Origin: a virus
Length of the DNA: 64,000 bases
Strand: one strand, 5' to 3'
Virus record (IMG/VR): IMGVR_UViG_3300045988_154248
Part shown: positions 1,343 through 19,271 of the stretch, piece after piece
Layout of the letters: the number at the start of each line of letters is the position of its first letter
How positions within the stretch are numbered: position 1 is the first letter of the stretch
Notes under the pieces: model-generated
Databases searched by the model: none
What the model was told of the DNA's origin: nothing
Seen by the model: the letters and a program-made list of their open reading frames with translations, nothing else
Made by a program: the position numbers and the translations under genes

Positions 1343-1358
1343 TGAAATCCTTGTTTCA
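1343..1358 (-). promoter_or_regulatory. intercistronic element TGAAA-N6-TTTCA (copy 1)
   Basis: The mRNA strand reads AATGAAACAAGGATTTCAGAAGGGAG. It sits immediately 5' of the SD of 990..1325. Confidence 0.5.
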
Positions 1359-1372
1359 TTTTTCTATTATTC

Positions 1373-1412
1373 TCCAACAAAAAGGAACCATACACTATTT
1401 TGTATGATTCCT
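1373..1412 (-). terminator. intrinsic terminator-like hairpin
   Basis: AGGAA/TTCCT and CATAC/GTATG stems are followed on the minus strand by TTTTTGTT. Lies downstream of 1438..1668. Confidence 0.5.
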
Positions 1413-1437
1413 TCGTTAATTTTATTCTGGCAATATT

Positions 1438-1668
1438 TTATAAGTTAATTGGTTCATCATTCTCATCATATTCAATCGGATAAATCTTCGCTGCATAACC
1501 AATATTTTTTAATTTATCATAAATTTCCATTGTAATTGTTTCGCCACCTACTGACCATTCAAGCGAAAATCTACTATCATTGTTTTCAATGATTTCAATC
1601 AAATGATCTAATAATTCTTCTGTATTACTTGCTCTTTCCATCTGTTCTTTAATATTATTCATAATCAT
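1438..1668 (-). CDS. hypothetical protein
   Basis: ORF track gives 1438..1677 with a GTG start. ATG at 1668 lies 8 nt after GGAGG. Confidence 0.6.
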   Translation of the reverse strand: MIMNNIKEQMERASNTEELLDHLIEIIENNDSRFSLEWSVGGETITMEIYDKLKNIGYAAKIYPIEYDENDEPINL

Positions 1669-1682
1669 AAATAGCACCTCCT

Positions 1683-1698
1683 TGAAATGCGGTTTTCA
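1683..1698 (-). promoter_or_regulatory. intercistronic element TGAAA-N6-TTTCA (copy 2)
   Basis: Sequence TGAAATGCGGTTTTCA. Its TGA is the stop codon of 1696..1989 and its 3' half abuts the next SD. Confidence 0.5.
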
Positions 1699-1989
1699 TT
1701 TACTCAATACTTTCCATTTATCAATATTTTCAGTATCAAAAAACGAATGTAATTCCTCTTCTGATAATGGTGTAATTCCATAAACACCATCATATCCAAA
1801 TTTTTTCAAATCATCTTTTATAAACTCTTCTGCTTCTTCAAAAGTTGGATAATGATCTGCTTTGATTGCTATACTATACTCCGTATCAATAAGACCTCTA
1901 TTGATTTCACATCCATTTTCTGCTCCATTTTTAATTTCTTCTTCTGTTGCCTTTACTCCGCAATTTAATTCGTAATATTTAATCTTCAT
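1696..1989 (-). CDS. hypothetical protein
   Basis: ORF track gives 1696..2013. ATG at 1989 (MKIKYYELN) lies 7 nt after GGGAGG. Confidence 0.6.
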   Translation of the reverse strand: MKIKYYELNCGVKATEEEIKNGAENGCEINRGLIDTEYSIAIKADHYPTFEEAEEFIKDDLKKFGYDGVYGITPLSEEELHSFFDTENIDKWKVLSK

Positions 1990-2362
1990 AATATTCCTCC
2001 CAATCTTCTTCACTTAACGATTTCCATAATTCAAGACTCATTTCCTCGCACGCTTCCATATCCTCATAAACATCTTTCATATCATATGGTGCGCCATTTG
2101 TTCCATGCCCTGTATTGTCTAGCCACAAATAAGCCTCATAGCTGCAATCATAATTATCATAATAATCTTTAATGTTATTTAATAGTGCGTATACATTATT
2201 ATCTTCCATCTCTGCCTCAAAATTGAAATCTTGACCTGCCGGACTATATTTAGAAAATTCATAAGAAAAATTATCTCCGTCATTTGATTCAACATCAACT
2301 TCCCATCCGTTTTCTTCTGCAATTTCTACAATTCTATCTCTCATGGCTTGTAATTTATTCAT
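1979..2362 (-). CDS. hypothetical highly acidic protein
   Basis: 127-aa D/E-rich ORF. GGAGG lies 8 nt upstream. Confidence 0.65.
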   Translation of the reverse strand: MNKLQAMRDRIVEIAEENGWEVDVESNDGDNFSYEFSKYSPAGQDFNFEAEMEDNNVYALLNNIKDYYDNYDCSYEAYLWLDNTGHGTNGAPYDMKDVYEDMEACEEMSLELWKSLSEEDWEEYYED

Positions 2363-2389
2363 ACCATCTACCTCCGATCAAATATATTG

Positions 2390-2551
2390 TTATTCACATT
2401 CTATACAATTATTTTCAATTTCTTCTTCTGTTTTCCATTCTTCAAGTCCAACGCATCTGCATTCACAACTATCTTTTTCATCACAGTAAAAGCAACATTT
2501 AGAGCATTTACTATCTTCTGGAACAGAAACATCAATTAAACATTTCAACAT
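2390..2551 (-). CDS. small Cys-rich protein (53 aa)
   Basis: Hand-translated as MLKCLIDVSVPEDSKCSKCCFYCDEKDSCECRCVGLEEW... GGTGAGGTG lies upstream. Below the ORF-track length cutoff. Confidence 0.4.
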   Translation of the reverse strand: MLKCLIDVSVPEDSKCSKCCFYCDEKDSCECRCVGLEEWKTEEEIENNCIECE

Positions 2552-2581
2552 ATTATCACCTCACCAAAATAATTAATCTTC

Positions 2582-3905
2582 TATAAATGAGCAAATCCAA
2601 AATATTGCACAAAAGAAAGACACCCTCTGTAGAAGGATGTATAATTGAAGTACCAACAAACAACATACTCACTCAAACAAGGGGGTGTCCGTTGCAAACA
2701 GTATACATCATTCCAAACATATTTACAATTACCTGAAAGCATTAAATCTCGGATTATTTTTATCCGATGTGTATCTGAACCACTTATTGACCATCATCCT
2801 GTCTGTTTTTCTCCGGGGATACCGGGGAAAAACAGTTGATTTCCAAGAAGTCAGCCATTGCCACAGGACAACGACCGCTTATTTCCTGAATCACGGAAAA
2901 TGGAAGGACGATGCATTGCAGGATGTTTTAAAAAGCAGCATCCTCCAAGCCATTTATAGGGAAGCACAGCGTTCCGGACAACCGATTTACTGTATTGTGG
3001 ATGATACGATTGCTTCACATACCCGGCCTTCGTCACAGGCGGTTCATCCAATCGAAGCTGCGTATTTTCATCAATCACATTTAAAAGGCTGTCAGGATTA
3101 TGGGCATCAGGTTGTCTCCGTTATGCTTTCCTGCAACGGGATTACCCTGAATTATGCAGTCATCCTGTACGATAAATCAAGATCAAAGATCCAGATTGTA
3201 CAGGAGATCGCGGAAGAACTTCCCGCTGCGCCGGTCATTTCCTACTTTCTTTGTGACAGCTGGTATACTACTGCAAAAGTGATGGACCGTTTTATTCGGA
3301 AAGGATTCTATACGGTTGGGGCATTAAAGACCAACCGAATCCTTTATCCATGCGGGATCCGTCAAAAAGCCAGTGCATTTGCCCTTCATTTGCGGAAAAC
3401 AGACCCGGATGTCAGCCTCGTGACCGTTGGCAGCCGTGAATTCTATGTATACCGCTATGAAGGGGAGTTGAATGGCATTCCAAATGCAGCGGTGATCCTC
3501 AGCTATCCGAAGGATGGATTTGGGAATCCCAAAGCATTGCGTGTATTTCTCTCTACAAATGCAGAGTTATCCACGCAGGAGATCCTGGACACCTATACGA
3601 AACGGTGGCCGATTGAATTATTTTTCCGGCAGAGCAAAAGTAAACTTGCGCTGGATAGTTATCAAATCCGATCCCGTCAGGGAATCCAAAGGTATTGGCT
3701 GATCATGTCGTTGGTCCACTATTTGTGCTGTATGCATTCTGGAAACTACTGCACATTCGAAGAGGGATACGCATCCTTGAAGCAGCAGCTAAAGCAGGAA
3801 CAGTTTGCAAACCTGTACCGCCTCATAAAAAGCAGCGCCTCATTCGAAGAAGCTTTTAAGTTTGTGGGATAAGTTTGTGCAAAATTCGATATTTGCTCAT
3901 TTATA
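2582..3905 (+). mobile_element. IS4-family insertion sequence
   Basis: Terminal inverted repeats TATAAATGAGCAAAT...TTGCACAAA at both ends. 8-bp direct target duplication TAATCTTC at 2574-2581 and 3907-3914. Visibly higher GC than the flanks. Confidence 0.8.
2685..3872 (+). CDS. DDE transposase, IS4 family
   Basis: 395-aa ORF on the strand opposite its neighbours. Carries DDT...CDSWY...YTKRWPIELFFRQSK, the Y-x2-R-x3-E-x6-K signature. Confidence 0.85.
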   Translation: MSVANSIHHSKHIYNYLKALNLGLFLSDVYLNHLLTIILSVFLRGYRGKTVDFQEVSHCHRTTTAYFLNHGKWKDDALQDVLKSSILQAIYREAQRSGQPIYCIVDDTIASHTRPSSQAVHPIEAAYFHQSHLKGCQDYGHQVVSVMLSCNGITLNYAVILYDKSRSKIQIVQEIAEELPAAPVISYFLCDSWYTTAKVMDRFIRKGFYTVGALKTNRILYPCGIRQKASAFALHLRKTDPDVSLVTVGSREFYVYRYEGELNGIPNAAVILSYPKDGFGNPKALRVFLSTNAELSTQEILDTYTKRWPIELFFRQSKSKLALDSYQIRSRQGIQRYWLIMSLVHYLCCMHSGNYCTFEEGYASLKQQLKQEQFANLYRLIKSSASFEEAFKFVG

Positions 3906-4223
3906 GTAATCTTCATAAACTCTATACATTTCCTCATATTCTTCCGACAAACTTCTCAATACATCTTTATAGATGTAAAGTTGATTATTTTCTAAATAGT
4001 TACGCAATCCTGTTTCCGTATCAAAGAATTCCTCAACTGCTGTCGAATTCGCCCATCTGTCAAAAGATACCAACGCAGCTACTCTTAACATCCATTTTCC
4101 ATTTGTTCCGCTATGTGGTTCTACAACCAGGAATAAAATTGTATCTGTTTTCGCTTGTAGTATGGCTTCGTATTCATCGACTTCATAACCGTTATCTTTG
4201 AACCAATTCTTTATAATATCCAT
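3897..4223 (-). CDS. hypothetical protein, C-terminus altered by IS insertion
   Basis: 108-aa ORF. The last codons (YYK-stop) come from the IS end. Without the IS the frame would stop at GAAGATTAA. Confidence 0.6.
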   Translation of the reverse strand: MDIIKNWFKDNGYEVDEYEAILQAKTDTILFLVVEPHSGTNGKWMLRVAALVSFDRWANSTAVEEFFDTETGLRNYLENNQLYIYKDVLRSLSEEYEEMYRVYEDYYK

Positions 4224-4237
4224 GATTTTTTCCTCAT

Positions 4238-4253
4238 TGAAATGTGCTTTTCA
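4238..4253 (-). promoter_or_regulatory. intercistronic element TGAAA-N6-TTTCA (copy 3)
   Basis: Sequence TGAAATGTGCTTTTCA. Its TGA is the stop of 4251..4514 and it sits just 5' of the SD of 3897..4223. Confidence 0.5.
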
Positions 4254-4514
4254 TTGTGTTATTCTCGCATATTTTAATGGATATTTCGAAAAATCCAAAT
4301 ATTCAGAATTATATACACTAGGAATAAATTTTCTAAAATCATCATAGTACCATGCTTTCCATAATTCTGTTCCGGTCTTTGCAAATTCCCTAGTGGCTTC
4401 TTGAAATGCGTCATATAACGTCATGTTATATACTTCCATATTTTCTTTTGTTCTTTCTTTTACCTTTTTAGGAACTCTACCAATTATCAAATCATCGTCA
4501 TAAAACATATTCAT
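4251..4514 (-). CDS. hypothetical protein
   Basis: ORF track gives 4251..4541. AGGAG followed by ATGAATATG favours a start at 4514 or 4508. Confidence 0.55.
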   Translation of the reverse strand: MNMFYDDDLIIGRVPKKVKERTKENMEVYNMTLYDAFQEATREFAKTGTELWKAWYYDDFRKFIPSVYNSEYLDFSKYPLKYARITQ

Positions 4515-4543
4515 ACTCCTTTTTTTATGAGAAGTTTTCATTG

Positions 4544-4747
4544 CTATTTTACTTTGTCCAATCCAAATAAAGCATCAGGAAAACTTCTCTTTATTTCTTC
4601 AAAATTTTCAAAGCAATCTGCATATCTATCTGTGCCATCTTCTATGTTCAATACGAGAAAACTTCTATCTCCATCATTCCATAATGTTCTTGCATCATGT
4701 TCTGAAATAATATCAAACCATTTTGAAAAATATTCTTCTGTAAACAT
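4544..4747 (-). CDS. hypothetical protein
   Basis: 67-aa ORF that tiles the operon. Confidence 0.55.
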   Translation of the reverse strand: MFTEEYFSKWFDIISEHDARTLWNDGDRSFLVLNIEDGTDRYADCFENFEEIKRSFPDALFGLDKVK

Positions 4748-4816
4748 TTCAATTCCTCCAATCTTTTAATTTATTAGTTTATCAAACCCTATCTTATTAT
4801 TCTCTGTCTTGTTGTA

Positions 4817-4850
4817 CTAAAAAAGCAGATAACTTTTTCGTCACCTGCTT
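4817..4850 (-). terminator. intrinsic terminator-like hairpin
   Basis: AAGCAG/CTGCTT stem followed by a U-run on the minus strand. Confidence 0.45.
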
Positions 4851-5002
4851 TCCTTAAATATTACGAAACTGCATCTCCGTATCATTTCATAATCTCTACA
4901 TCCTTTATAATTATCACACATCCAATTATAAATCTCTGTATCAGACATATTATGAAATTTTAGAATATGTTTTCTGCATTCATCTAAGATATATTCTTCC
5001 AT
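4841..5002 (-). CDS. small protein (53 aa)
   Basis: Hand-translated as MEEYILDECRKHILKFHNMSDTEIYNWMCDNYKGCRDYEMIRRC... AGGAG lies upstream. Confidence 0.4.
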   Translation of the reverse strand: MEEYILDECRKHILKFHNMSDTEIYNWMCDNYKGCRDYEMIRRCSFVIFKESR

Positions 5003-5005
5003 ATT

Positions 5006-5173
5006 TTACTCCTCAATTTCTTCAACATCACTTTCATCATAATGAGTATCTGCTATTGGAATACATCTATCAGATTCCAATTTTCCTTCCGCTATTCTAA
5101 GTGCTTCAGTTTCATTTTCTGCCTCTACTTCATATTCTTCATATGTTGTAAATGTCACACTATACTTCTTCAT
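5006..5173 (-). CDS. small acidic protein (55 aa)
   Basis: Hand-translated as MKKYSVTFTTYEEYEVEAENETEALRIAEGKLESDRC... GGAGG lies upstream. Confidence 0.45.
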   Translation of the reverse strand: MKKYSVTFTTYEEYEVEAENETEALRIAEGKLESDRCIPIADTHYDESDVEEIEE

Positions 5174-5175
5174 AA

Positions 5176-5382
5176 TCATTCCTCCATCATTTCATTAAAT
5201 TCTATCCAACTTTCAAAAGACTCTTCCAATCCTCTCGATCGAATGGTTTCCATTTCGTCTTCTGTCATTTCATAATTTTTATCTTCACAATATTGTTGGA
5301 CTGTATCATGCTCTGCTTCTAACCACTTATCATCGTCTTCAATTTTATCGACTTCTACTAATAATTTATCAAGTTCATTCAT
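5176..5382 (-). CDS. hypothetical acidic protein
   Basis: ORF track gives 5176..5415. ATG at 5382 (MNELDKLL) follows GGAGG. Confidence 0.55.
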   Translation of the reverse strand: MNELDKLLVEVDKIEDDDKWLEAEHDTVQQYCEDKNYEMTEDEMETIRSRGLEESFESWIEFNEMMEE

Positions 5383-5459
5383 AGTAGTCAACCTCCAATT
5401 CATGTCAACAATCAATAAAGAAAATCGTTCCGTTAAATATTTATTCTCTCTTTTTTTAA

Positions 5460-5475
5460 TGAAATTTCCGTTTCA
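5460..5475 (-). promoter_or_regulatory. intercistronic element TGAAA-N6-TTTCA (copy 4)
   Basis: Sequence TGAAATTTCCGTTTCA, directly after the stop of 5477..5629. Confidence 0.4.
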
Positions 5476-5476
5476 A

Positions 5477-5629
5477 TTATATTCCAAACGCCATAAATAC
5501 AATCGCACACAGCAACATACCAAATGCTGTAATCGCTAAAGCTCCTTTAATTGTCAAGTTAACTCTTGACATATGACTTCTCATATACCAACATGTCAAA
5601 CTAATTAATGCACATGTAATTCCTCTCAT
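5477..5629 (-). CDS. small hydrophobic membrane peptide (50 aa)
   Basis: Hand-translated as MRGITCALISLTCWYMRSHMSRVNLTIKGALAITAFGMLLCAIVFMAFGI. ATGA overlap with the upstream stop. Confidence 0.4.
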   Translation of the reverse strand: MRGITCALISLTCWYMRSHMSRVNLTIKGALAITAFGMLLCAIVFMAFGI

Positions 5630-5808
5630 TTTTTATCTCCTTTGTTCTCAAAACCTTTCTCTTTATAAGCATATTCTCTGTCATAAACTTCTTTATAGAA
5701 TTGAATATCCTGTGCTGTTGCTCTTTTTGCTTTCTCTATACAATTTTGTAAAAAAGCCAAACTTTCTTCCTTATTCAAATGTTTTCCTCCTGATACTTTC
5801 CGTTTCAT
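5626..5808 (-). CDS. hypothetical basic protein
   Basis: 60-aa ORF that tiles the operon. Confidence 0.5.
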   Translation of the reverse strand: MKRKVSGGKHLNKEESLAFLQNCIEKAKRATAQDIQFYKEVYDREYAYKEKGFENKGDKK

Positions 5809-6113
5809 TACAACTCATAATCTCTGCATAAATCCAACACTGTATCAATAATATTCTGTACGGAATCAATTCCATACCCGCTTAACATATCGAACGAAAC
5901 GTTGTCAGATGCGTATACTAAATCACAATAATGACACCATCCATCTTCTTCGTTATTAACAAATGTAATCTCAAGATTCACTTCGTTTGTTAATGGATAT
6001 TGCCAAGCTCTGTCATCAAATGATATTGGTCTATTTCCATTTCCGCTCCACATTTCAGGGTTCATCTGATTAAAAAAATTTTTTACAATTTTTTCTGCCG
6101 TTTCTCTTTTCAT
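5808..6113 (-). CDS. hypothetical protein
   Basis: ORF track gives 5808..6122. ATG at 6113 lies 8 nt after GGAG. Confidence 0.6.
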   Translation of the reverse strand: MKRETAEKIVKNFFNQMNPEMWSGNGNRPISFDDRAWQYPLTNEVNLEITFVNNEEDGWCHYCDLVYASDNVSFDMLSGYGIDSVQNIIDTVLDLCRDYEL

Positions 6114-6149
6114 TATCATCACTCCTAATTTTGAATTTTCTATTTCATT

Positions 6150-6344: not shown

Positions 6345-6371
6345 ATTGCTTTCCTCCACATAAATTTGTTT

Positions 6372-6710: not shown

Positions 6711-6728
6711 TTCTATCACTCCTAATTT

Positions 6729-6744
6729 TGAAATCTACGTTTCA
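6729..6744 (-). promoter_or_regulatory. intercistronic element TGAAA-N6-TTTCA (copy 5)
   Basis: Sequence TGAAATCTACGTTTCA. Its TGA is the stop of 6742..6960 and it sits 5' of the SD of 6372..6710. Confidence 0.5.
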
Positions 6745-6960
6745 TTTAGCTGCTTCTATTACAATGGTAGAATCTTGTGTTGTGATAGACTTTATTTTCA
6801 TATCAAGAATACGATCCAATGGTTTATTAAAACCGTCTCTTTGTGTGCAAAAAACCAATTCTGCTCCATCACCATATTGCTTTCCGTCTGAGCAATCATA
6901 AATATCATAATTACAATTACAATCAAAATCATCATTATAAACTAAATCGCCAACAACCAT
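6742..6960 (-). CDS. hypothetical protein
   Basis: 72-aa ORF that tiles the operon. Confidence 0.55.
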   Translation of the reverse strand: MVVGDLVYNDDFDCNCNYDIYDCSDGKQYGDGAELVFCTQRDGFNKPLDRILDMKIKSITTQDSTIVIEAAK

Positions 6961-7166: not shown

Positions 7167-7224
7167 AATTGTTTCCTCTCTTTTCTCTTTCCGTTTTCGT
7201 TTCTGAAATCATCGTTTCTTATGG

Positions 7225-7512: not shown

Positions 7513-7540
7513 ATAAAAACCTCTCTTTCCTAGTAAATCC

Positions 7541-8398
7541 TCATTTCATTGTCTCAATTTTTATTAATGGTTTTATTCTTCTCCTACCAACATTTTTCCC
7601 TTGTCGTTTAAGTAACGATAAAGTTTTATTATATGTTTCAACATCTATAATTGGCTCAAAATTTCCTTTATAAGTTTCTCCACAAAAAATATTGTACCCA
7701 CAATATTGTGTTCGTGTAAGAATTTTTTGAACACTATAAGCTGTTGGGACTTTGCCTCTCTTACCTTTAAATCCTCTTTCTCTTGCTTCTTTCGCAACTT
7801 CTGATAAATTTTTTCTTAACGAATACTCAGAAAAACAAAAACGCACATATTCTGCTTCTTTTTTATTGATTTTAAATGAATCCTTTCCATCTAAATCATA
7901 TCCTAATATTTCAGAACAAGTACGTTTTCCTTGTGCGGCTCTCTCTGCCATAGCTGCACTAACTCTTTCACTTGTTAATTCTCTTTCTAGCTGTGCGAAT
8001 ACACCAACAATGCCAATCATTGCTCTACCCATTGGAGTAGATGTATCAAAAGCTTCAGTATATGAAACCATAGATATATTCCATTGTTGGAATTTTTCCA
8101 TTGTCGAATATAAATCCGATACACTTCTTGTAAATCTACTAAGTGCCCAAAATAAAACTAAATCAAATTTCCCATTTTTTGCATCATATAATAATCTATT
8201 TATATCTGGTCTATGTTCAATATCCTTTCCTGAAATTCCTTTGTCTGCATACAAATCATAAACATTATATTTCCGTTCCTCACACCATTTCCTAAGCGTT
8301 TTTTCTTGTGCATCTAAAGAATATCCTTCACGGACTTGATCGAGTGTGCTTACACGTATGTATATTGCTACTTGTTTTTTATTCTCCACATACAACAC
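7541..8398 (-). CDS. serine recombinase (resolvase/invertase catalytic domain plus recombinase domain; short form)
   Basis: N-terminal VAIYIRVSTLDQ...GYSLDAQ...DKGISG motif set. 285 aa, with no long C-terminal zinc-ribbon or coiled-coil region. Confidence 0.85.
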   Translation of the reverse strand: MLYVENKKQVAIYIRVSTLDQVREGYSLDAQEKTLRKWCEERKYNVYDLYADKGISGKDIEHRPDINRLLYDAKNGKFDLVLFWALSRFTRSVSDLYSTMEKFQQWNISMVSYTEAFDTSTPMGRAMIGIVGVFAQLERELTSERVSAAMAERAAQGKRTCSEILGYDLDGKDSFKINKKEAEYVRFCFSEYSLRKNLSEVAKEARERGFKGKRGKVPTAYSVQKILTRTQYCGYNIFCGETYKGNFEPIIDVETYNKTLSLLKRQGKNVGRRRIKPLIKIETMK

Positions 8399-8400
8399 CT

Positions 8401-8718
8401 CTATTCCTTTTTTATTCCAAATTCAAAACAAGCAGCACATCCCATTTTATCAGGGTACATGCCATCATTGTCAGCCACAATTTCCCATCCATATTCAAAA
8501 GATACTATGTTATCATATACTGCTTGTGGATTATCTTCATTACCATCCCAATCCGTAACTGGATTATCTCCATTTTTTAATGCTTCTAAATCACATATTA
8601 ACCTTCCATGTTTCCCATATTCATATCCGCTATGTAAATAATCGACTTTACCATTTTTATTAAAAACAACTAAAGTTAACCCACCGCCATTATCCTCAAT
8701 AACTTCATATTTCCTCAT
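8401..8718 (-). CDS. hypothetical protein
   Basis: ORF track gives 8401..8736 with a TTG start. ATG at 8718 lies 9 nt after GGAGGGG. Confidence 0.6.
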   Translation of the reverse strand: MRKYEVIEDNGGGLTLVVFNKNGKVDYLHSGYEYGKHGRLICDLEALKNGDNPVTDWDGNEDNPQAVYDNIVSFEYGWEIVADNDGMYPDKMGCAACFEFGIKKE

Positions 8719-8744
8719 AATATTTTTCCCCTCCAATCTTCAAA

Positions 8745-8760
8745 TGAAAATCTTGTTTCA
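8745..8760 (-). promoter_or_regulatory. intercistronic element TGAAA-N6-TTTCA (copy 6)
   Basis: Sequence TGAAAATCTTGTTTCA, between the stop of 8761..9012 and the SD of 8401..8718. Confidence 0.5.
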
Positions 8761-9012
8761 TTAATTTTCACAAATAATCTGATAACATTCTGCCTGATCT
8801 TCTGTCAATTCATACATTCCGTTCTTATCTGCATATTCACTTGGATATGTATTACACTCTGCATCTTCATCAAGCAAGATAATTGTGCAATCTTCAACAG
8901 CAGCATCTACTATTTCTTCTGCCTGTTCAATATTTTCTACTTCTTCAATTGGGACTAATATCGTTTTCTTAAAAACCATTTCCGTTGTAATTGCGTAATA
9001 TTTCTTTTTCAT
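8761..9012 (-). CDS. hypothetical acidic protein
   Basis: 83-aa ORF. Confidence 0.55.
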   Translation of the reverse strand: MKKKYYAITTEMVFKKTILVPIEEVENIEQAEEIVDAAVEDCTIILLDEDAECNTYPSEYADKNGMYELTEDQAECYQIICEN

Positions 9013-9200
9013 AAAAACTATCTCCTTTCCTGAAATTCATATACAGAAAATACTTTTCTCTTCTTTTCAGTTACAAGGATTTTCCGCAATTTTCACTGCC
9101 TGTTCCTTTGTTTTTGCGTCTACAGATATACCTAATTCTTCATTTTCAAAACCAACACACCATGTTTTCATATTATTTTCTCCTTTGAAATTGCTATCTC

Positions 9201-9545
9201 TTAACAATAAAGCTCCCATCCTTTTCTTTGACTTCCAAGTTTCCGTTCAATTACAATACTTTCACCTTCACCTATTAAATATCCTTCTCTGCAAATTTCT
9301 GTATCTCCTAAACGAATCCATGGATAAATATAAAACTGCGTGATCTCTTTATAATTTGATAGATCATCTTTAAATCCATTTTCTCTGTTTTCTTTCAAGC
9401 ATTCCTTCCAGATCTTTTCAAATTCAGTTCTACATTTCCGCTTAGACATTCGATTTGACTTAGTAACCTCATTTCCAGCATAATAATAACCACCTTCTGC
9501 TGGTTCATAAATCGGATATTCTGAATAAAATGTTAGATATCTCAT
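9201..9545 (-). CDS. hypothetical protein
   Basis: 114-aa ORF. Confidence 0.6.
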   Translation of the reverse strand: MRYLTFYSEYPIYEPAEGGYYYAGNEVTKSNRMSKRKCRTEFEKIWKECLKENRENGFKDDLSNYKEITQFYIYPWIRLGDTEICREGYLIGEGESIVIERKLGSQRKGWELYC

Positions 9546-9885: not shown

Positions 9886-10085
9886 TTACATCGCTCTCAC
9901 TTTCTGTTATAATAACTACTCAAGGAGTTGGGGACTTACATGGAATTTCCATTGCCCCATTTGTTATTCATTGATATATTCCCAGGCTTCTCGTTCTGTT
10001 GGAAAAGCAATGCTGCATCCTGGGATATACCAGTTTCCGTATTTCATGTACGGCATAGCTACACACCTCCTTGTATGTATTTATA

Positions 10086-10116
10086 GAAAAAGCAGAGATG
10101 GCGTTCTCTGCTTTTA
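10086..10116. terminator. bidirectional terminator-like hairpin
   Basis: AAAAGCAGAG...CTCTGCTTTT is a perfect stem with an A-run and a T-run on either side. Confidence 0.55.
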
Positions 10117-10156
10117 TCTATCTCGTTATGTTATTCTCTCTTTTGGAATTGCTATT

Positions 10157-10327
10157 TCATCGCCATGACAAAACCGGTTCATAAACCGTATCAATCCATT
10201 TACATAAATCATCGAATTCTCTTTCCGTGATAGACCCATCATCATAGCAATCATGAACATAATCCTCAATATCTCCCTTATGTTTTCCGCGCATATTGTT
10301 TATGATATAGTTCATAATTTCTCTCAT
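10157..10327 (-). CDS. hypothetical acidic protein
   Basis: ORF track gives 10157..10372. ATG at 10327 (MREIMNYII) follows GGAGG and overlaps the upstream stop as ATGA. Confidence 0.5.
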   Translation of the reverse strand: MREIMNYIINNMRGKHKGDIEDYVHDCYDDGSITEREFDDLCKWIDTVYEPVLSWR

Positions 10328-11332: not shown

Positions 11333-11363
11333 TTTCTTTACTCCTTTTAAAATCTTAGTTTCT

Positions 11364-11678: not shown

Positions 11679-11724
11679 AAAATTTCCTCCAATCTACTTT
11701 TGAAATGCGAATTTCTTACTTATG

Positions 11725-12291: not shown

Positions 12292-12360
12292 ATCTTACCT
12301 TTCCTTTCCAATGAAACACGCATTTTTTATATTATATGTCCATTGTATTATTTGAAATAA

Positions 12361-12815: not shown

Positions 12816-12830
12816 ATTGTTCGCTCTCCT

Positions 12831-13271: not shown

Positions 13272-13324
13272 ATTTATCATCCTTTCTCTTTAAGAAATCG
13301 TTCTTTCATTAGGTATCATGCAAT

Positions 13325-13594: not shown

Positions 13595-13607
13595 TTACAT
13601 CGCTTCC

Positions 13608-13886: not shown

Positions 13887-13888
13887 AT

Positions 13889-14135: not shown

Positions 14136-14138
14136 TAA

Positions 14139-14501
14139 CTATCCCTCCATTGTGTAATACAGATATTTGTATCTTGTATCATCCACATTTCCATTCCAAT
14201 CAATATCAAGCCATTTCAGTTCTACAACCAGGATATTGTCATCTGTTGCATAGCACTTTATAAAGGTATGTGGTCTTACATCTTTGAGTTCCAAATGACT
14301 ATCTCCATCAAATACTAAATGATTATTTGATTTTGCCACACATGTTCTTGCATGTGATTTATAATTTTCAAGCCTTCTTTGTCTTACAGCACCAATTTCT
14401 CCATCATCCATAGCAGGGCTAATCCCAATCAATAATGACTTACCACTTGTAATTCTTCTAACAAATTCTGCCTTACTAATCTCTTTAATGTTATCTCTCA
14501 T
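14139..14501 (-). CDS. hypothetical protein
   Basis: ORF track gives 14139..14510. ATG at 14501 follows GAGGGTG. Confidence 0.6.
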   Translation of the reverse strand: MRDNIKEISKAEFVRRITSGKSLLIGISPAMDDGEIGAVRQRRLENYKSHARTCVAKSNNHLVFDGDSHLELKDVRPHTFIKCYATDDNILVVELKWLDIDWNGNVDDTRYKYLYYTMEG

Positions 14502-14519
14502 ATCAATCACCCTCGCTTT

Positions 14520-15158
14520 CTACGCTATCTGCTTTGCTATATCTTCAATGTTTCCATTCATTACAATTACCGCATCTTTGTTGTCAGGATACTCATTCAT
14601 AAAATCTCTCAATCCCTCAAACTGCTTATTATCTGCATTTTCAATCATCTGCCTTACATTTTCGTTATGCAACTTAATCAAATAAGCTTTTTTATAATAC
14701 TGTTTGAATAAAAGATTTTCCTTTTCGCAATACTGCTTAATCACGTCAATCTGTCTCTGTTCCTCTTTCTTGATTACTTCGACTCTTGCCTTCTCATTAG
14801 CTTCTGCCTGTTCTTTTCGTTTGCGATTTCCAATTAGATAATTGAATAATGAATCTGATGCACATAAACTTTTATAAACCGCCTTTTCAATGTCGTATTC
14901 ATCTGGTTTGTCTTTTTCAATCCACCACAAGAAATTATCAATTGTTCTGTTGAAATTCTCTTCAAAGATGCACCTATTGCCAAGCTTGATATCTAAAATA
15001 TTCTTTCCATCTTTTTCGATCCGTAATGATGTATATACGTTTTCATCCGGTTTATCTGGATAAATACTCCATGTATACCTATCTTGTGTTCCATATACAA
15101 TCATTCCATATGCTTCATAAATCCGTTTCTCTTCATTTTTCAAATATACAAGTCCCAT
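14520..15158 (-). CDS. hypothetical protein
   Basis: 212-aa ORF. Confidence 0.65.
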   Translation of the reverse strand: MGLVYLKNEEKRIYEAYGMIVYGTQDRYTWSIYPDKPDENVYTSLRIEKDGKNILDIKLGNRCIFEENFNRTIDNFLWWIEKDKPDEYDIEKAVYKSLCASDSLFNYLIGNRKRKEQAEANEKARVEVIKKEEQRQIDVIKQYCEKENLLFKQYYKKAYLIKLHNENVRQMIENADNKQFEGLRDFMNEYPDNKDAVIVMNGNIEDIAKQIA

Positions 15159-15177
15159 TTTTTACTTGCCTCCTACA

Positions 15178-15456
15178 TCATTCTAAATTTGCATTTGTAT
15201 ATTTCAACCATTTTCCTGTATAAGTTCCGTTTAATCTCTCTTCGAAAGTTCTTTTTCTCATTCCGTAGATTTCTGTAGCAACTTTATACATGTCATATAC
15301 AAGATCCTTTTTCATATCTACAATCATAAAATCTTTTGGGTTATCCATACTATCCAATACATACTGCATGAAGTCTCTAAAAGTAACCAATCTATTTGTC
15401 GTACACCAAACAATTACTTCATCTTTTTCCTTCGTTACAAATTTTACTATCTGCAT
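15178..15456 (-). CDS. hypothetical protein
   Basis: ORF track gives 15178..15492. ATG at 15456 (MQIVKF) follows GGAAGGAG. Confidence 0.55.
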   Translation of the reverse strand: MQIVKFVTKEKDEVIVWCTTNRLVTFRDFMQYVLDSMDNPKDFMIVDMKKDLVYDMYKVATEIYGMRKRTFEERLNGTYTGKWLKYTNANLE

Positions 15457-15476
15457 AATATTCACTCCTTCCATTA

Positions 15477-15504
15477 CAAAAAGCAGACACAATTCTGCAT
15501 CTGC
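15477..15504 (-). terminator. intrinsic terminator-like hairpin
   Basis: GCAGA/TCTGC stem followed by UUUUUG on the minus strand. Confidence 0.45.
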
Positions 15505-15542
15505 CTTATTATTCTCCGCTCATGAAACTAATATTTTATGTA

Positions 15543-15887
15543 CTACCACTCAGGTTCTTTATCTGTTAAACCCAAGTAAAACGCATCCTTTTCGCTGTTC
15601 CAAAAATGTTCTTGCAAATCAGCAAACGATTTAGTTCCATTTTTCAACGCCTCATAATCTGCAAGTACCATATCATCTGTGTAATTTGCATATTCATTTC
15701 TGGCAATAGCAAGTCTGAACGTTTCACCCTTTCTTATCCAACCAAATCTACTTGTATTTTTCGCTATCGGATAAGCACTAATTGTATACCCATGCAAATC
15801 TGGATATTCTTCTGAATTTTCACTATGCCAATCTTCAAGCTGTATTTTTGTTCCATCTGCCATTACTGCTCTATCAATAGTCTGCAT
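15543..15887 (-). CDS. hypothetical protein
   Basis: ORF track gives 15543..15896. The second in-frame ATG is at 15887. Confidence 0.6.
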   Translation of the reverse strand: MQTIDRAVMADGTKIQLEDWHSENSEEYPDLHGYTISAYPIAKNTSRFGWIRKGETFRLAIARNEYANYTDDMVLADYEALKNGTKSFADLQEHFWNSEKDAFYLGLTDKEPEW

Positions 15888-15888
15888 A

Positions 15889-16074
15889 TCAATCACTAAT
15901 CCTTTCTCTCCACTTTTTAATTCGCACAGGGTAAATTACGTTTTCTCTGTATGTTTTCAATTGTGCTTTTGCATCTGCTCTATCTTCACAATTGCACTCA
16001 ATATCCCATCCATAACCACAATTTCCTTCGATTGCATAACAATCTTTCGTCTTTCTTTTATATGCCATAATCAA
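15889..16074 (-). CDS. hypothetical protein
   Basis: 61-aa ORF. Confidence 0.5.
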   Translation of the reverse strand: MIMAYKRKTKDCYAIEGNCGYGWDIECNCEDRADAKAQLKTYRENVIYPVRIKKWRERISD

Positions 16075-16475
16075 TATACCTCTTCATAAAATTTAATTGT
16101 TCTTTCCTTTTCAGCTTTATATTTCGCTTTATCAGTAAATAATGTGAGATAAATATCTCCCTCACAATATGTAAATACCGCCATCTGTTCATCTGAATAA
16201 GCATAAGAGCTATAACCATTTACCTGCACTAAATCGAATTTGCATTTCTTTGCGAACTGATAGCTCAAATCAGACATCCAATGTCCACTCAACATATAGT
16301 TTCCATTTCTATCTTCTGTCTCTTCCATGAAGTTTACGTTCGCAATCCGTTTTGTATCTTCGTTCAATGGATACACTGACAAATCTAAATCGGCAATGTC
16401 ATATTCTTCTTTATCTGGGATTCTTCCAGTTTCTCTAATCATCTGATAGTATTTGTTTCTTGGTATATATTTCAT
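16071..16475 (-). CDS. hypothetical protein
   Basis: ORF track gives 16071..16565. ATG at 16475 (MKYIPRNKYY) follows GAGGA and overlaps the upstream stop as TAATG. Confidence 0.55.
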   Translation of the reverse strand: MKYIPRNKYYQMIRETGRIPDKEEYDIADLDLSVYPLNEDTKRIANVNFMEETEDRNGNYMLSGHWMSDLSYQFAKKCKFDLVQVNGYSSYAYSDEQMAVFTYCEGDIYLTLFTDKAKYKAEKERTIKFYEEVY

Positions 16476-16918
16476 TATTTCATCCTCACTTTCATCATTT
16501 CTTTTCTGTATTCTTTTATCTGTTCCAAAGTCAACCATTCCGGTTTCTCTTCCAGTGATTTCCAAATCCGTTCCATTTCGTCACAGATTGCTTCTACACT
16601 GCCACCCCACAGATGACCTTCATAACCGTTTCCATTTCCGAGGAAATAGTTACAATCACTTCTCATTCTGTCTAATAACATGTAATCCTTTTCTCTTGGA
16701 TGCCGAATAAAAGGATCATCGCACTCAACTGGTTCTGTTACTCTATTACATGGCTCACCACAGATTTCATCCCATTCGGTTCTATAAGCACCTGTGTAGA
16801 GATTAAGTCCGTTTTCTCCATTGTTCTCGTCAAAATACAACTTCCCATTTTCATCTTCGTAGCATGGAACTTCCATGTATCCACCAAACCCAACATATTT
16901 TACTTTCATACTTTTCAA
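16475..16918 (-). CDS. hypothetical protein
   Basis: 147-aa ORF. Confidence 0.6.
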   Translation of the reverse strand: MKSMKVKYVGFGGYMEVPCYEDENGKLYFDENNGENGLNLYTGAYRTEWDEICGEPCNRVTEPVECDDPFIRHPREKDYMLLDRMRSDCNYFLGNGNGYEGHLWGGSVEAICDEMERIWKSLEEKPEWLTLEQIKEYRKEMMKVRMK

Positions 16919-16927
16919 CCTGCCTTT

Positions 16928-17137
16928 CTATCCGATCCACTGTTTTGTTACTGTGTTATAAATCGCCCCGTTTGCATCCTGATATTCTTTGTATCTGGAA
17001 TATGTAAACCGTAAACATTTATGACCGTTCGCATAAACAATGGTCTTATTTCCATTATCAATGGCAAATCTTTCACGCCACCCAGCAGCTTCCCATGCTT
17101 CTTTCATTTCACCTCTGAATCTTCTTGCCTTCTCCAT
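16928..17137 (-). CDS. hypothetical protein
   Basis: ORF track gives 16928..17200. ATG at 17137 (MEKARRFRGE) follows GGAGGAG. Confidence 0.5.
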   Translation of the reverse strand: MEKARRFRGEMKEAWEAAGWRERFAIDNGNKTIVYANGHKCLRFTYSRYKEYQDANGAIYNTVTKQWIG

Positions 17138-17139
17138 TT

Positions 17140-17379
17140 TTACTCCTCCTGTTTTCTCTTCATAATTCCATTTGCTGCCTGTACACATCCGTATAACCAA
17201 CCATTCAGGTAATCAATGTTGTAGCAATACTGCGTCCAATCTCCGTTTTTTGCCCTTTCTTCACTGGTAAAAACATAAAATCCATTACCATAATCAGCAT
17301 CTTCAATTTTAATAAAGTCGAAGTTTGCCTTATAAGACCGCAAGTTATCTTTAATAATTTCTTCCTGACGTTTTGTCAT
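17140..17379 (-). CDS. hypothetical protein
   Basis: ORF track gives 17140..17394. ATG at 17379 lies 9 nt after GGAG. Confidence 0.55.
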   Translation of the reverse strand: MTKRQEEIIKDNLRSYKANFDFIKIEDADYGNGFYVFTSEERAKNGDWTQYCYNIDYLNGWLYGCVQAANGIMKRKQEE

Positions 17380-17400
17380 CTTCTTTTTCTCCAATTAAAT

Positions 17401-17434
17401 AAGGCAGCTAGGTATTTATTCTCCTAACTGCCTT
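17401..17434 (-). terminator. conserved-loop intergenic hairpin (family copy 1)
   Basis: The minus RNA reads AAGGCAGTTAGG-AGAATAAATA-CCTAGCTGCCTT. Homologous to 17697..17728. Confidence 0.5.
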
Positions 17435-17441
17435 GCTGCGT

Positions 17442-17663
17442 TTAATTACTATGAATCGAATAGCGAGCATTCACTTCTTTCAAACATTCCATCATCAAAC
17501 CGAAATCATTAAATCTGTCAATATCTTTAATAACAGCTGTACTACCACATACATTAATAAAAATGCATTTTGCGTTTTCACAATAATCTACGGTCACTCT
17601 CTTATCATCCGTATACTCATTCGCTTCGAACATCTCATTCATTTTCTTAATCCAGTCATTCAT
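17442..17663 (-). CDS. hypothetical protein
   Basis: 73-aa ORF. Confidence 0.55.
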   Translation of the reverse strand: MNDWIKKMNEMFEANEYTDDKRVTVDYCENAKCIFINVCGSTAVIKDIDRFNDFGLMMECLKEVNARYSIHSN

Positions 17664-17696
17664 GATATTTTCCTCATTACTTTCTTGTAATAAAAC

Positions 17697-17728
17697 AGAT
17701 AGTTAGGTTTTTATTCTCCTGACTACCT
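17697..17728 (-). terminator. conserved-loop intergenic hairpin (family copy 2)
   Basis: The minus RNA reads AGGTAGTCAGG-AGAATAAAAA-CCTAACTATCT followed by GUUUUAUU. The stem differs from copy 1 by paired changes. Confidence 0.5.
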
Positions 17729-17761
17729 TTGTTTTGCGTTGTTTTGTTTAGTTGCTAGAGC

Positions 17762-18046
17762 TTACAGACACTCTGCAAAAATCTGAAGGTTAAATTTGTT
17801 GCTTAACTTTTCAATGGTCATATCTTTGAGTTTCTTTGCAAGAGATAATTCATTTGCATCGTAAGTCCATTCCATTTCGTATCCATTTGGTGTCGCAGGG
17901 AATTTCACTTCTACACAAATTCCATTTCCATAATCCGTAACTTCTGTTACAGTTCCAAAGAAACTTTTATGATACCGTACACCATATTCTTCTTCATACT
18001 TCGTATCTGGGTTAGATACATATACTAAATCACCAACTTTAAACAT
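17762..18046 (-). CDS. hypothetical protein
   Basis: 94-aa ORF. Confidence 0.6.
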   Translation of the reverse strand: MFKVGDLVYVSNPDTKYEEEYGVRYHKSFFGTVTEVTDYGNGICVEVKFPATPNGYEMEWTYDANELSLAKKLKDMTIEKLSNKFNLQIFAECL

Positions 18047-18065
18047 TTGCCTTCACTCCTTTTCT

Positions 18066-18081
18066 TGAAATCTTAATTTCA
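18066..18081 (-). promoter_or_regulatory. intercistronic element TGAAA-N6-TTTCA (copy 7)
   Basis: Sequence TGAAATCTTAATTTCA. Its TGA is the stop of 18079..18384 and it sits 5' of the AAGGAG of 17762..18046. Confidence 0.5.
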
Positions 18082-18384
18082 TTGGGTTATGTTATCAAAA
18101 AAATCTAATATCTTCGTTTTTTCATAATACTGTTTCCAGTTACCGCTTAAAGTTACGCCTATACAAGTACACGGATCTGTATTATGACTTTTCGGTATCT
18201 GAAAAACGGCAATACATTCATCGTCAGTAACAGTCATATCCGAAAATATCAACTTTTCTAAGCTACATTTTGTTGCGCAGTTTTCTTTTACACCTGTACA
18301 AATTCTGTCATACTCCGACTTACACTCATCAAAAGATTTTCCTTTAATCACAACAGAATGATTTAAAACTTTAATTTCTGTCAT
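18079..18384 (-). CDS. hypothetical Cys-rich protein
   Basis: 101-aa ORF. Confidence 0.6.
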   Translation of the reverse strand: MTEIKVLNHSVVIKGKSFDECKSEYDRICTGVKENCATKCSLEKLIFSDMTVTDDECIAVFQIPKSHNTDPCTCIGVTLSGNWKQYYEKTKILDFFDNITQ

Positions 18385-18420
18385 ACAATTATACCTTTCC
18401 TATGAAACACGTATTTCTAA

Positions 18421-18951
18421 CTACTTGCTAATATAAATTCTTACTGAGTTTTCGTCATCAAATGCCTTTATGACATCATCTTCCGTTTCTAAGAATGTAT
18501 AATTGATTCTGTATCTAATTCTTGCATTACTATAAAGTTTCTTGTAGAAATAATCGTCAAACTCCTTCATTGTCATTTCCGTTGGCTTGTCATTTTCAAA
18601 TACTGTCACACCATCAATTCTATTGAATGACACATATTTTCCAGAATGAATTAACTCATCGTAAGTAACTGACTTTTTCAGCATTCTCAACAAGTGCATT
18701 CCATAATCATAATAATTACAATATCTACTTCCGATTTTCAAGTCAAAGCCCTCTGATTCTTTGGATGGTTTACTATCATTTTTGAATCCTTCTGCAAACT
18801 TGATAAAATCTTCTTTTGTATAAATTTTCCCTTGCCAATCATCGTTTTTTCTGCCTTCATTGTCATTGTTACAACCTTGTAAACTCAGATGTAAAATTCT
18901 CCCATCTGATAAGTTCACAATTTTTGTTTTAAAGATAATACCATATCCCAT
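18421..18951 (-). CDS. hypothetical protein
   Basis: 176-aa ORF. Confidence 0.65.
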   Translation of the reverse strand: MGYGIIFKTKIVNLSDGRILHLSLQGCNNDNEGRKNDDWQGKIYTKEDFIKFAEGFKNDSKPSKESEGFDLKIGSRYCNYYDYGMHLLRMLKKSVTYDELIHSGKYVSFNRIDGVTVFENDKPTEMTMKEFDDYFYKKLYSNARIRYRINYTFLETEDDVIKAFDDENSVRIYISK

Positions 18952-19015
18952 ATAATCACCATTTGTCTTTCTGATCTTCCTATGAAATGTTGCTTTCTTA
19001 CACTAAGCTATAATT

Positions 19016-19243
19016 TTAGTAACTTTTAATTGAGCCATCTGCGTTTACATGCCATTTTTCAGATGGTCTAAAGTTCTTTCCGTTGTTGATATGCAAAATC
19101 CATATGTCACCCTTCGGACAAAACCAATTAGCATGTTCCATCCGATGCTCCATACATTCTTCAAAAGAAGAAAATATATCTACAACTTCACCGCTTCTTT
19201 CGCTTGTTTCAACATATATTGCATAAAAATCAAACTTAACCAT
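19016..19243 (-). CDS. hypothetical protein
   Basis: ORF track gives 19016..19297. ATG at 19243 (MVKFDFYA) follows GGGAG. Confidence 0.55.
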   Translation of the reverse strand: MVKFDFYAIYVETSERSGEVVDIFSSFEECMEHRMEHANWFCPKGDIWILHINNGKNFRPSEKWHVNADGSIKSY

Positions 19244-19255
19244 TATTCTCCCTTC

Positions 19256-19271
19256 TGAAATTTCTCTTTCA
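19256..19271 (-). promoter_or_regulatory. intercistronic element TGAAA-N6-TTTCA (copy 8)
   Basis: Sequence TGAAATTTCTCTTTCA, immediately 5' of the SD of 19016..19243. Confidence 0.5.

Follow-up and report, generated by a model that had tools for sequence, protein, structure and literature searches.

Dispersed palindromes of 13–16 bp, read by a dimeric helix-turn-helix (HTH) protein with a ParB NTPase fold, characterise the ParB family (parS/ParB, NBS/Noc and OB/KorB of RK2), in which KorB silences transcription at a distance. In T4-type phages, recombination between repeated regulatory elements called PeSL (promoter-early stem-loop) shuffles ORFan genes (Arbiol et al. 2010, PMC2839356; Comeau et al. 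2014, PMC4122927), and in SPbeta a repeated intergenic element, SPBRE, is bound by the master repressor MrpR (YopR) (Kohm et al. 2023, PMC10516654). Here we analyse a repeated dyad, TGAAA-N6-TTTCA, in a stretch of viral DNA of 64,000 nucleotides (IMG/VR record IMGVR_UViG_3300045988_154248; hereafter the window), where it lies between the small genes of a minus-strand accessory arm (positions 1–20637). To the original prediction, made from the letters of this DNA, we add three observations, namely symmetry statistics of the kind expected for duplex DNA, conservation across arms made of unrelated genes, and coincidence with the boundaries of exchanged cassettes. In our estimate, there is an even chance that the dyad is a duplex-DNA site at which a two-fold symmetric protein would bind. 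Its role as a cassette boundary, an aspect that had been missed before, is secondary.

Copies of the dyad and their placement

The window holds 10 perfect copies of TGAAA-N6-TTTCA, against 0.64 expected and a maximum of 3 in 100 dinucleotide shuffles. This upholds the enrichment that the original prediction had proposed to check against a shuffled control. Eight copies lie in the arm exactly where they had been placed, at 1343, 1683, 4238, 5460, 6729, 8745, 18066 and 19256; the two further ones (50037 and 62452) fall inside plus-strand open reading frames (ORFs) and are compatible with chance. One-mismatch copies number only 27 in the whole window, against 14 expected. Those listed earlier at 7204, 10144, 11701, 18403 and 18983 were found again, the one given as 13286 really starts at 13293, and two had been overlooked (6132 and 15523). 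Two-mismatch copies occupy the arm junctions at 7533, 9186, 11348 and 12312. Between 1 and 20.7 kb, 35 junctions are 20 nt or longer, and with degenerate copies counted 20 of them (57%) hold the element; the density is roughly one copy per kb. When all 5-mer dyads with gaps of 0–12 bp were enumerated, TGAAA with a gap of 6 ranked first in the arm, where it was the sole TGAAA dyad among the top hits, and it was unranked in the remaining 37 kb of the window. The dyad is absent from the late region of the phage in the window.

The placement described at the outset was found throughout. Every arm copy is intergenic, between minus-strand genes, with the upstream stop codon 0–13 nt before the motif and, in window and related-phage copies alike, a Shine-Dalgarno sequence (SD) 1–10 nt downstream of the dyad; the distance from the end of the dyad to the start codon is 12–26 nt in most copies. 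An A precedes the motif in 7 of the 8 perfect copies, and in four of them (1683, 4238, 6729 and 18066) the TGA of the motif is the stop codon of the upstream gene, as it is at the one-mismatch copy 10144.

From these features it had been proposed that the dyad is a translational-coupling or reinitiation element, in which AUGAAA...UUUCAR encodes a mini-ORF, MKxxFQ, that passes ribosomes from the upstream gene to the next start. The A at position 0, found in 79% of copies, indeed yields an AUG in about half of them, and AUGA overlaps arise where the UGA of the motif serves as the upstream stop. However, in a set of 289 junction copies from 65 loci (852 kb), which reduces to 239 distinct 18-mers and also serves for the symmetry statistics below, the ATG is intact in just 153 (53%), and the variants that destroy it (AGAAA, GTAAA and TAAAA) are themselves enriched. 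The putative mini-ORF varies from 2 to 139 codons, its stop lying anywhere between −45 and more than +25 nt relative to the start codon that follows, and the substitutions are not biased towards synonymous ones (AAA>AAG is absent, and TTT>TTC accounts for 2 of 6 changes at that position). Furthermore, the UGA of the motif is the upstream stop in 29 of 116 copies, which is not above the one in three given by the reading frame, and coding offers no explanation for the mirror-image conservation of CAT in the right half. Since the A before TGAAA is mirrored by a T after TTTCA, this A belongs to the palindrome and not to a start codon. The ATG, length, stop and substitution statistics thus contradict the attractive reading of a conserved upstream mini-ORF, which is corrected here as wrong; a ribosome relay of this kind is extremely improbable.

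Conservation was followed in related phages and beyond them. Fifteen loci around a homologue of the arm gene at 7541–8398 have as many as 7 perfect copies per 20 kb, and pooling them with the arm gives 57 perfect copies against 0.7 expected and 104 one-mismatch copies against 28. An independent 202-kb ENA contig (L167) has 7 copies against 0.19 expected, all downstream of its counterpart of the HTH gene that stands at the head of the arm (20985–22100), and none in the 10 kb upstream of that gene. Seven IMG/VR relatives together have a single copy upstream of the HTH gene, in L023 at 4050, and another inside the gene itself, in L017 at 10090. A related-locus search that used another arm gene (380–775) found no match.

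A pattern scan of IMG/VR retrieved further dyad-rich arms, among them L119, L093, L088, L084, L052 and L129. These arms have no DNA or protein similarity to the window, and the L118 locus, with 9 copies against 0.14 expected, shares with it one 226-nt stretch only. The unrelated arms keep the same layout: stop codon, A-TGAAA-N6-TTTCA, 1–12 nt, SD and ATG. The positional link of the motif to the SD, on which the original prediction had staked its case in related phages, therefore holds there and in unrelated arms too. Because both the genes and the 6-nt spacers of these arms are unrelated, selection acts directly on the two halves of the motif, which are not just passively inherited. No window protein is common to all the dyad-rich loci examined. 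In practical terms, the dyad offers a sequence tag for accessory arms and cassette boundaries in metagenomes.

Symmetry of the dyad and candidate binding proteins

The consensus of the 239 distinct copies is an 18-bp sequence, A-TGAAA-y-NNNN-r-TTTCA-t, whose halves show mirrored base preferences. Position 1 (T197/A25/G11/C6) is matched by position 16 (A197/T22/C12/G8), and position 2 (G177/A48/T11/C3) by position 15 (C155/T51/A23/G10). The one-mismatch spectrum of a first set was symmetric as well (T1>A 11 vs A16>T 13; G2>A 8 vs C15>T 10). The half-site TTTCA occurs in 140 of 457 distinct junctions, against 10 in shuffles, with AAA occupying the partner position in 119 of these 140; the spectra of partners found for the two half-sites mirror each other (TAAAA 21 and TTTTA 22; AGAAA 11 and TTTCT 12). 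Finally, 86 copies have a self-complementary central dinucleotide, where 59.6 would be expected (p about 1e-4).

An inverted repeat in a transcribed spacer could also act as RNA. The original prediction had considered an RNA-binding repressor or nuclease site following RegA/RegB logic, and a UGAAA-N6-UUUCA hairpin could be read by such a protein or by an endoribonuclease as with RegA/RegB, RNase III or RNase Y, which would process, stabilise or translationally control each cistron. The position always in transcribed intercistronic sequence, 1–10 nt upstream of the SD, would suit this, as would the predicted minimum free energy structure, a 5-bp stem with a 6-nt loop; the A at position 0, stronger than the T at position 17, hints at a strand-specific constraint. 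However, Watson-Crick pairing at pairs 0-17, 1-16, 2-15, 6-11 and 7-10 is equal to or slightly below the expectation for independent positions, and no covariation was found at any of the 7 possible pairs. Non-pairing hybrids are enriched (TG..AC, 12; GT..CA, 7; TG..CT, 13; AG..CA, 11), whereas GT..AC, in which the changes compensate each other fully, is absent. Nor does wobble pairing bring an advantage, because G2>A (48), an A·C mismatch in RNA, is as frequent as C15>T (51), a tolerated G·U. The hairpin is marginal (−1.3 to −3.1 kcal/mol, z-scores −0.4 to −2.2, no T-run), and an Rfam search of the arm gave no family match. Moreover, reverse-complement symmetry of half-site variants has no meaning for the recognition of single-stranded RNA. 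Disfavoured by pairing, wobble and folding energy alike, an RNA element is unlikely.

Mirror-symmetric preferences without a pairing constraint point to a two-fold symmetric protein that reads duplex DNA, not to a hairpin or a single-stranded RNA. Of the three readings first put forward, the 16-bp DNA operator with 5-N6-5 geometry thus stands as far as the mirrored halves, their co-occurrence and the missing covariation are concerned; its likening to CRP/FNR-type sites does not, as their half-site is absent.

The position of the dyad was then considered in relation to transcription. No sigma-A-type promoter is enriched beside the dyads: the best −35/−10 matches upstream of 272 dyad junctions average 7.75, compared with 7.52 at random positions and 7.76 at non-dyad junctions, and strong matches are found at 6.6% of dyad junctions vs 5.8% of random positions and 10.3% of non-dyad junctions. 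The dyad might still be itself the recognition element of a promoter or re-initiation signal for a phage-specific transcription machinery, with a transcription start just upstream of the SD and each cassette as its own transcription unit, which would make it a true PeSL analogue. Consistent with this, each cassette unit of 1–5 genes opens with a dyad, the phage encodes a YonO-type RNA polymerase, and Enterocloster phage PMBT24 bears a different AT-rich dyad just upstream of several SDs. In addition, a terminator-like hairpin directly precedes the dyad at 1343, and an SD-like string follows the copies at 5460, 10144 and 15523, with a clear terminator at the latter two and a weak hairpin at 5460, an arrangement that would suit the making of a short transcript. 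On the other hand, the 1–10 nt between dyad and SD, and the distance of down to 12 nt to the ATG, leave hardly any room for a start site, two-fold symmetry is unusual in promoters, there is no sigma-A promoter signal, and the dyad is missing from the late region. Such a promoter is, in our judgement, improbable. Analogies with extracytoplasmic function (ECF), sigma-54 and N4-hairpin promoters were dropped, the expected downstream elements or SD spacing being absent. Identity with the YonO promoter was also rejected, since YonO of SPbeta initiates at a single late promoter (PMC5467207) and the dyad does not occur in the late region.

Because there is no sigma-A promoter, and because the dyad lies too near the SD and at too variable a spacing to be an evident promoter itself, the simplest mechanism is that a dimeric, sequence-specific DNA-binding protein would occupy the dyads along the whole arm. 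Its occupancy would gate read-through transcription of the cassettes, either by roadblock or by silencing. The position next to the SD would then merely reflect that the spacers are the sole non-coding DNA available, and the dyad would, as a linker, mediate cassette shuffling alongside regulation. A conserved palindrome of this kind provides a handle for finding the regulator that would control the whole arm.

Candidate binders are a phage protein with HTH and putative ParB-like fold or a host regulator of the LacI/CRP type, a host factor being equally possible. The phage candidate (371 aa; 20985–22100, minus strand), proposed from its domains and its place at the arm head, has an Xre-type HTH_3 domain followed by DUF6551, which occurs fused to ParB-CTPase folds in phage proteins, some of them binding CTP or ATP (bioRxiv 10.1101/2025.10.10.680097). 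Residues 1–40, which hold the HTH, are invariant at 37 of 40 positions across three alleles; two alleles are otherwise about 35% identical, and both allele groups carry the same dyad. A scan of GTDB genomes with this protein gave generic HTH matches only. A near-perfect dyad lies inside the HTH gene itself, at 21996–22011, in the codons of the recognition helix (T-E-N-T-I-S-N), and the same site is a perfect copy in the L017 allele (10090–10105).

Several points weigh against a dimeric DNA-binding protein at the dyads. The flanks depart from perfect symmetry, as 79% of copies have A at position 0 and 52% have T at position 17 (background 28%), and the site always lies in transcribed intercistronic RNA beside the SD, which would also suit a role at the RNA level. 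The relatives are partly kin by descent, which inflates some of the counts, an effect lessened by the sets of unique sequences and by the unrelated arms. The lack of a sigma-A promoter leaves a classical promoter-operator arrangement unsupported, and repression would have to act on an elongating polymerase or at a distance. With regard to the candidate, the HTH N-terminus was not detected in several large dyad-rich contigs (among them 160259, 2834277561_000001 and 139527), in a scan that needed exact peptide words and covered only parts of the contigs. We infer the binding, its effect on expression and the protein responsible.

A bolder form of the same idea, which we hold to be rather unlikely, is that the dyads serve the management of the whole arm, either as clamp sites of a ParB-fold/HTH NTP switch that would silence and later release the 40–50-kb arm, or as sites of an exchange-promoting protein. 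Such a system for managing an accessory arm would be one not yet described for phages. If true, an arm-management or integron-like device would explain why the same site stands between unrelated cassettes in many gut phages.

Cassette boundaries, the accessory arm and the phage

Alignment of the window to 15 relatives yielded 145 internal homology breakpoints, of which 130 lie inside gene junctions. Forty-two breakpoints have a motif copy no more than 10 nt away; of random positions, 3% would be expected to be that close. Breakpoints were found at all 13 testable motif junctions and at 21 of 39 other junctions (Fisher p = 0.0019), several of the latter containing degenerate copies. Identical 16-mers, spacer included, stand next to differing genes, both upstream and downstream, and the order of cassettes differs between relatives. 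Where the upstream side is shared, identity ends after the left half-site (position 6; 11 pairs) or the right one (positions 15–18; 31 pairs), and where the downstream side is shared, it stops at the left edge (−5..+2; 33 pairs); few breaks fall in the centre of the dyad. These positions, at both half-sites, suggest exchange anywhere within the two conserved halves, with no fixed central crossover. The dyad is the only sequence common to otherwise unrelated cassettes, and as the homology of the relatives breaks there, it appears to act as a linker for modular cassette shuffling. That crossovers occur at the dyad is inferred from this shared sequence together with the homology breaks.

The same boundaries could mark site-specific recombination, the dyads being crossover sites, as in an integron, of the serine recombinase at 7541–8398 or of the XerC/D-like tyrosine recombinase at 48107–49159. 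The former (285 aa, minus strand) has Resolvase and Recombinase domains, is Ccr-like (NCBIfam CcrB, 6e-45) and is without the zinc-ribbon and coiled-coil part of large serine recombinases; dyads flank the two-gene block in which it lies. Mosaic boundaries coincide with dyads, the recombinase block is bracketed by them and followed by at least 7 alternative cassettes, cassette order changes between relatives, and independent half-sites around an unconserved spacer with a palindromic centre are typical of recombinase core sites. However, the apparent crossovers fall at either half-site (position 6, 15–18, or −5..+2) and almost never centrally. Serine recombinases require matching centres, whereas the central dinucleotide is here highly variable, with 54 distinct spacers, and 16–18 bp is short for such sites. 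The serine recombinase is encoded in none of 36 dyad-rich loci from the pattern scan (381 kb), while a homologue with 74% identity resides in an unrelated, prophage-like contig of 46% GC (L014) that has no dyads. Homology-dependent exchange within the conserved half-sites explains all the patterns, and crossover by a dedicated recombinase is very unlikely. Homology-dependent exchange at the dyad would give the long-standing 'linker sequence' account of phage mosaicism a tangible example in phages other than the T4 family, based on an element of another kind.

The individual copies, read on the minus strand, begin with the perfect dyad at 19256–19271, the first in the arm, with the start of gene 19016–19243 lying 12 nt further on. 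At 18066–18081 the TGA is the stop of 18079–18384. The perfect copy at 8745–8760 stands upstream of the two-gene block formed by 8401–8718 and the recombinase gene, with breakpoints at 8758–8768 in 12 relatives. At the other end of this block, a two-mismatch variant (7533–7548, TGAAATGAGGATTTAC) overlaps the stop codon of the recombinase and is followed in relatives by at least 7 different cassettes. Two further perfect copies with an upstream stop are also sites of exchange, namely 6729–6744 (stop of 6742–6960; breakpoints at 6723–6740) and 4238–4253 (stop of 4251–4508; breakpoints at 4239–4260 in 6 relatives). The dyad at 1683–1698 holds the stop of 1696–1989, 14 nt before the start of 1438–1668, and that at 1343–1358 (TGAAACAAGGATTTCA in mRNA sense), preceded by the terminator-like hairpin, lies 17 nt before the start of gene 990–1325. 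The perfect copy at 5460–5475 is an 'orphan', followed by an SD-like GAGAGAATAA and no start codon; the identical 16-mer heads a real gene in L010.

Among the one-mismatch copies, 10144–10159 contains the stop of 10157–10327, is followed by an SD-like string and a terminator hairpin, and has breakpoints in 7 relatives. The copy at 13293–13308 (TGAAAGAACGATTTCT) has breakpoints at 13294 and 13308, that at 15523–15538 (TAAAATATTAGTTTCA) is followed by GGAGAATAATAA and a terminator hairpin, and that at 6132–6147 (TGAAATAGAAAATTCA) lies 18 nt before the start of 5808–6113. The remaining ones are at 7204–7219 (AGAAACGATGATTTCA), 11701–11716 (AGAAATTCGCATTTCA), 18403–18418 (AGAAATACGTGTTTCA) and 18983–18998 (AGAAAGCAACATTTCA), and the other two-mismatch junction copies at 9186–9201 (AGAGATAGCAATTTCA), 11348–11363 (AGAAACTAAGATTTTA) and 12312–12327 (AAAAATGCGTGTTTCA). 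SD-like strings of the form GGAGAATAA(A/T) without a start codon recur at 5382–5460, 10056–10144 and 15456–15523 and upstream of 17379 and 17663, all on the minus strand. Either a hairpin comes after the string (a clear terminator in 10056–10144 and 15456–15523, a weak one in 5382–5460) or the string sits in a hairpin loop. These startless strings could represent small RNAs, 5′ stabilisers or cassette heads that have decayed.

The minus strand is read from position 1 to about 26.4 kb, with a GC skew of about −0.35. Within this stretch, the accessory arm (1–20637) is a hyperplastic region of about 60 small, co-directional genes, nearly all of which cannot be annotated; almost none match Pfam, PHROGs or NCBIfam. 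It extends past the left edge of the window, by at least 12 kb more in one relative, and such a fast-evolving arm of small genes without assigned function makes up about one quarter of the ~200-kb genome. An insertion sequence (IS; 2552–3896, GC 40%) with a DDE transposase gene (2685–3872, plus strand) breaks the arm on the opposite strand, and one 124-bp end of it is 100% identical to a contig of a human-faecal phage (MT835587.1). The HTH/DUF6551 gene is separated from the first gene of the arm by 347 nt, and this gap holds five TACATA repeats at about 20930–20990 (minus strand). The repeats adjoin a terminator-like hairpin and a 29-codon ORF, and this region may control the arm.

The window comes from a large tailed phage and encodes a terminase (54639–56573) and a portal (56609–58156), the portal being distantly akin to those of SPbeta-like, Sundance and Lactococcus 949-group siphoviruses. 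An 857-aa homologue of YonO, the single-chain RNA polymerase of SPbeta, is encoded at 34008–36581 (plus strand), with 50% identity to its counterpart in PMBT24, 35% to that of Clostridium phage c-st and about 26% to those of SPbeta and phi3T; a Pfam search with it gave no match. YonO is a single-chain polymerase related to multisubunit RNA polymerases. Deposited phage genomes include no close relative, and megablast of the arm against INPHARED matched only a fragment of an IS. In contrast, many near-identical contigs of up to 200–208 kb are present in IMG/VR and public assemblies. The exact sequence of the HTH protein is recorded in 488 blocks of public assemblies, which indicates that the phage is common in the gut. 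It is a prevalent gut Firmicutes phage of ~200 kb with a YonO-type RNA polymerase, in the lineage of SPbeta and c-st.

A few kb downstream of the polymerase gene there is a full-length GOLLD RNA (Rfam RF02032, 193 bits; 38105–38562, plus strand), followed directly by a tRNA gene (38591–38664). The YonO-driven late operon of SPbeta likewise starts with an unannotated non-coding RNA (PMC5467207). Four more tRNA genes are found on the plus strand, one at 46888–46959 and three clustered at 51014–51315. An IS200/IS605-type pair at 41454–42969 (plus strand) encodes a Y1 transposase and TnpB (OrfB_IS605 with a Cas12f-like TNB domain).

Comparison with known systems

A literature search for the motif string returned no papers, and one for intergenic palindromes in phage early regions nothing relevant. 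The dyad was compared with described families by their defining features. Like the PeSL of T4-type phages, it is a short, repeated, non-coding element between small, mostly ORFan genes of hyperplastic regions, and in both cases recombination between copies would drive the insertion, deletion, replacement and reordering of cassettes among close relatives. A PeSL, however, combines a sigma-70 early promoter with a terminator stem-loop in about 50 bp, whereas the dyad is a 16–18-bp palindrome between stop and SD, with no sigma-A-type promoter and no terminating or covarying stem.

SPBRE and MrpR come from the same broad lineage, defined by the YonO polymerase and a related portal, and SPBRE also is an intergenic repeat of early/accessory clusters. 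We recovered it de novo from 7 MrpR-bound promoter regions of SPbeta (L161, 50–100 kb) as AAATACAAAAAATATGTATATA, or (A/T)CAAATACAAAAAATATGTATATA, and it directly adjoins the SD of yopM and yopV. SPBRE differs from the dyad in its sequence, (A/T)CAAATACAAAAAATATGTATATA, which is unrelated, and in being present about 10 times, at promoter regions. YopR and YopQ of SPbeta and c-st had no match by tblastn in the window or in other phage-contig loci, roughly 1 Mb in all, the window covering 64 kb of the ~200-kb genome in this search. The tyrosine recombinase at 48107–49159 is XerC/D-like and not YopR-like.

Two related phage isolates differ. The first 50 kb of c-st (L160) contain no TGAAA-N6-TTTCA; TAAAA-N6-TTTTA, which has the same geometry, occurs there 13 times against 2.1 expected and a maximum of 6 in 200 shuffles (positions 1–50000), and may be the c-st counterpart of the repeated element. 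At least 12 of these 13 copies are intergenic, and about half have AATTAAATTAAA 5–10 nt later; c-st also encodes a YopR homologue. In PMBT24 (L030/L031), TGAAA-N6-TTTCA has zero copies. TTAAA-N7-TTTAA is found in that phage 13 times, the maxima in shuffles being 6–9, with several copies immediately upstream of SDs, on both strands, and also just after the HU-like gene, the position of the YonO promoter region in SPbeta.

Palindromes confined to one DNA domain, with an HTH + DUF6551 protein encoded at the head of the arm, recall the ParB-family sites. The sequence is nevertheless different, the candidate has the reverse domain order, with the Xre HTH at its N-terminus, and its binding of NTP and DNA is a prediction. 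The HTH_3 + DUF6551 gene adjoins the arm and its HTH is invariant across alleles; scans with peptide words missed it in several dyad-rich contigs.

With regard to CcpA, cre sites inside transcription units act as roadblocks, and their TGAAA and TTTCA half-sites are identical to those of the dyad. The cre consensus is WWGAAARCGYTTTCWW, with a flexible form, cre-var (PMC5263246). Unlike the dyad, cre has a 4-bp spacer (14–16 nt in total) and an obligatory central CG; the spacer of the dyad is 6 bp and its centre variable, CG being the commonest central dinucleotide (22 of 130) among many. Sites of the CRP/FNR type share the 5-N6-5 geometry, but their TGTGA or TTGAT half-site is not matched, and among the window proteins none showed a cNMP-binding or Crp-HTH domain.

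The other families differ in more basic ways. Integron attC sites measure 57–141 bp, as compared with 16–18 bp, and are paired hairpins conserved in structure and variable in sequence that go with an IntI-type integrase, whereas in the dyad the sequence is conserved and the pairing is not. The RegA/RegB sites of T4 are single-stranded RNA motifs at or in the SD or start (GGAG for RegB), and the dyad lies upstream of the SD, with the statistics of a dyad in DNA. Crossover sites of serine recombinases have a conserved central dinucleotide and a fixed central crossover, unlike the dyad. Since a defining feature failed or was undecided in each family tested, the dyad belongs to no named family. 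We class it as kin to dispersed palindromic operators and to the regulatory linkers that mediate modular shuffling. The gating of cassettes that we propose for it would resemble the SPBRE/MrpR system of SPbeta, KorB/OB of RK2 and the intragenic roadblocks of CcpA at cre.

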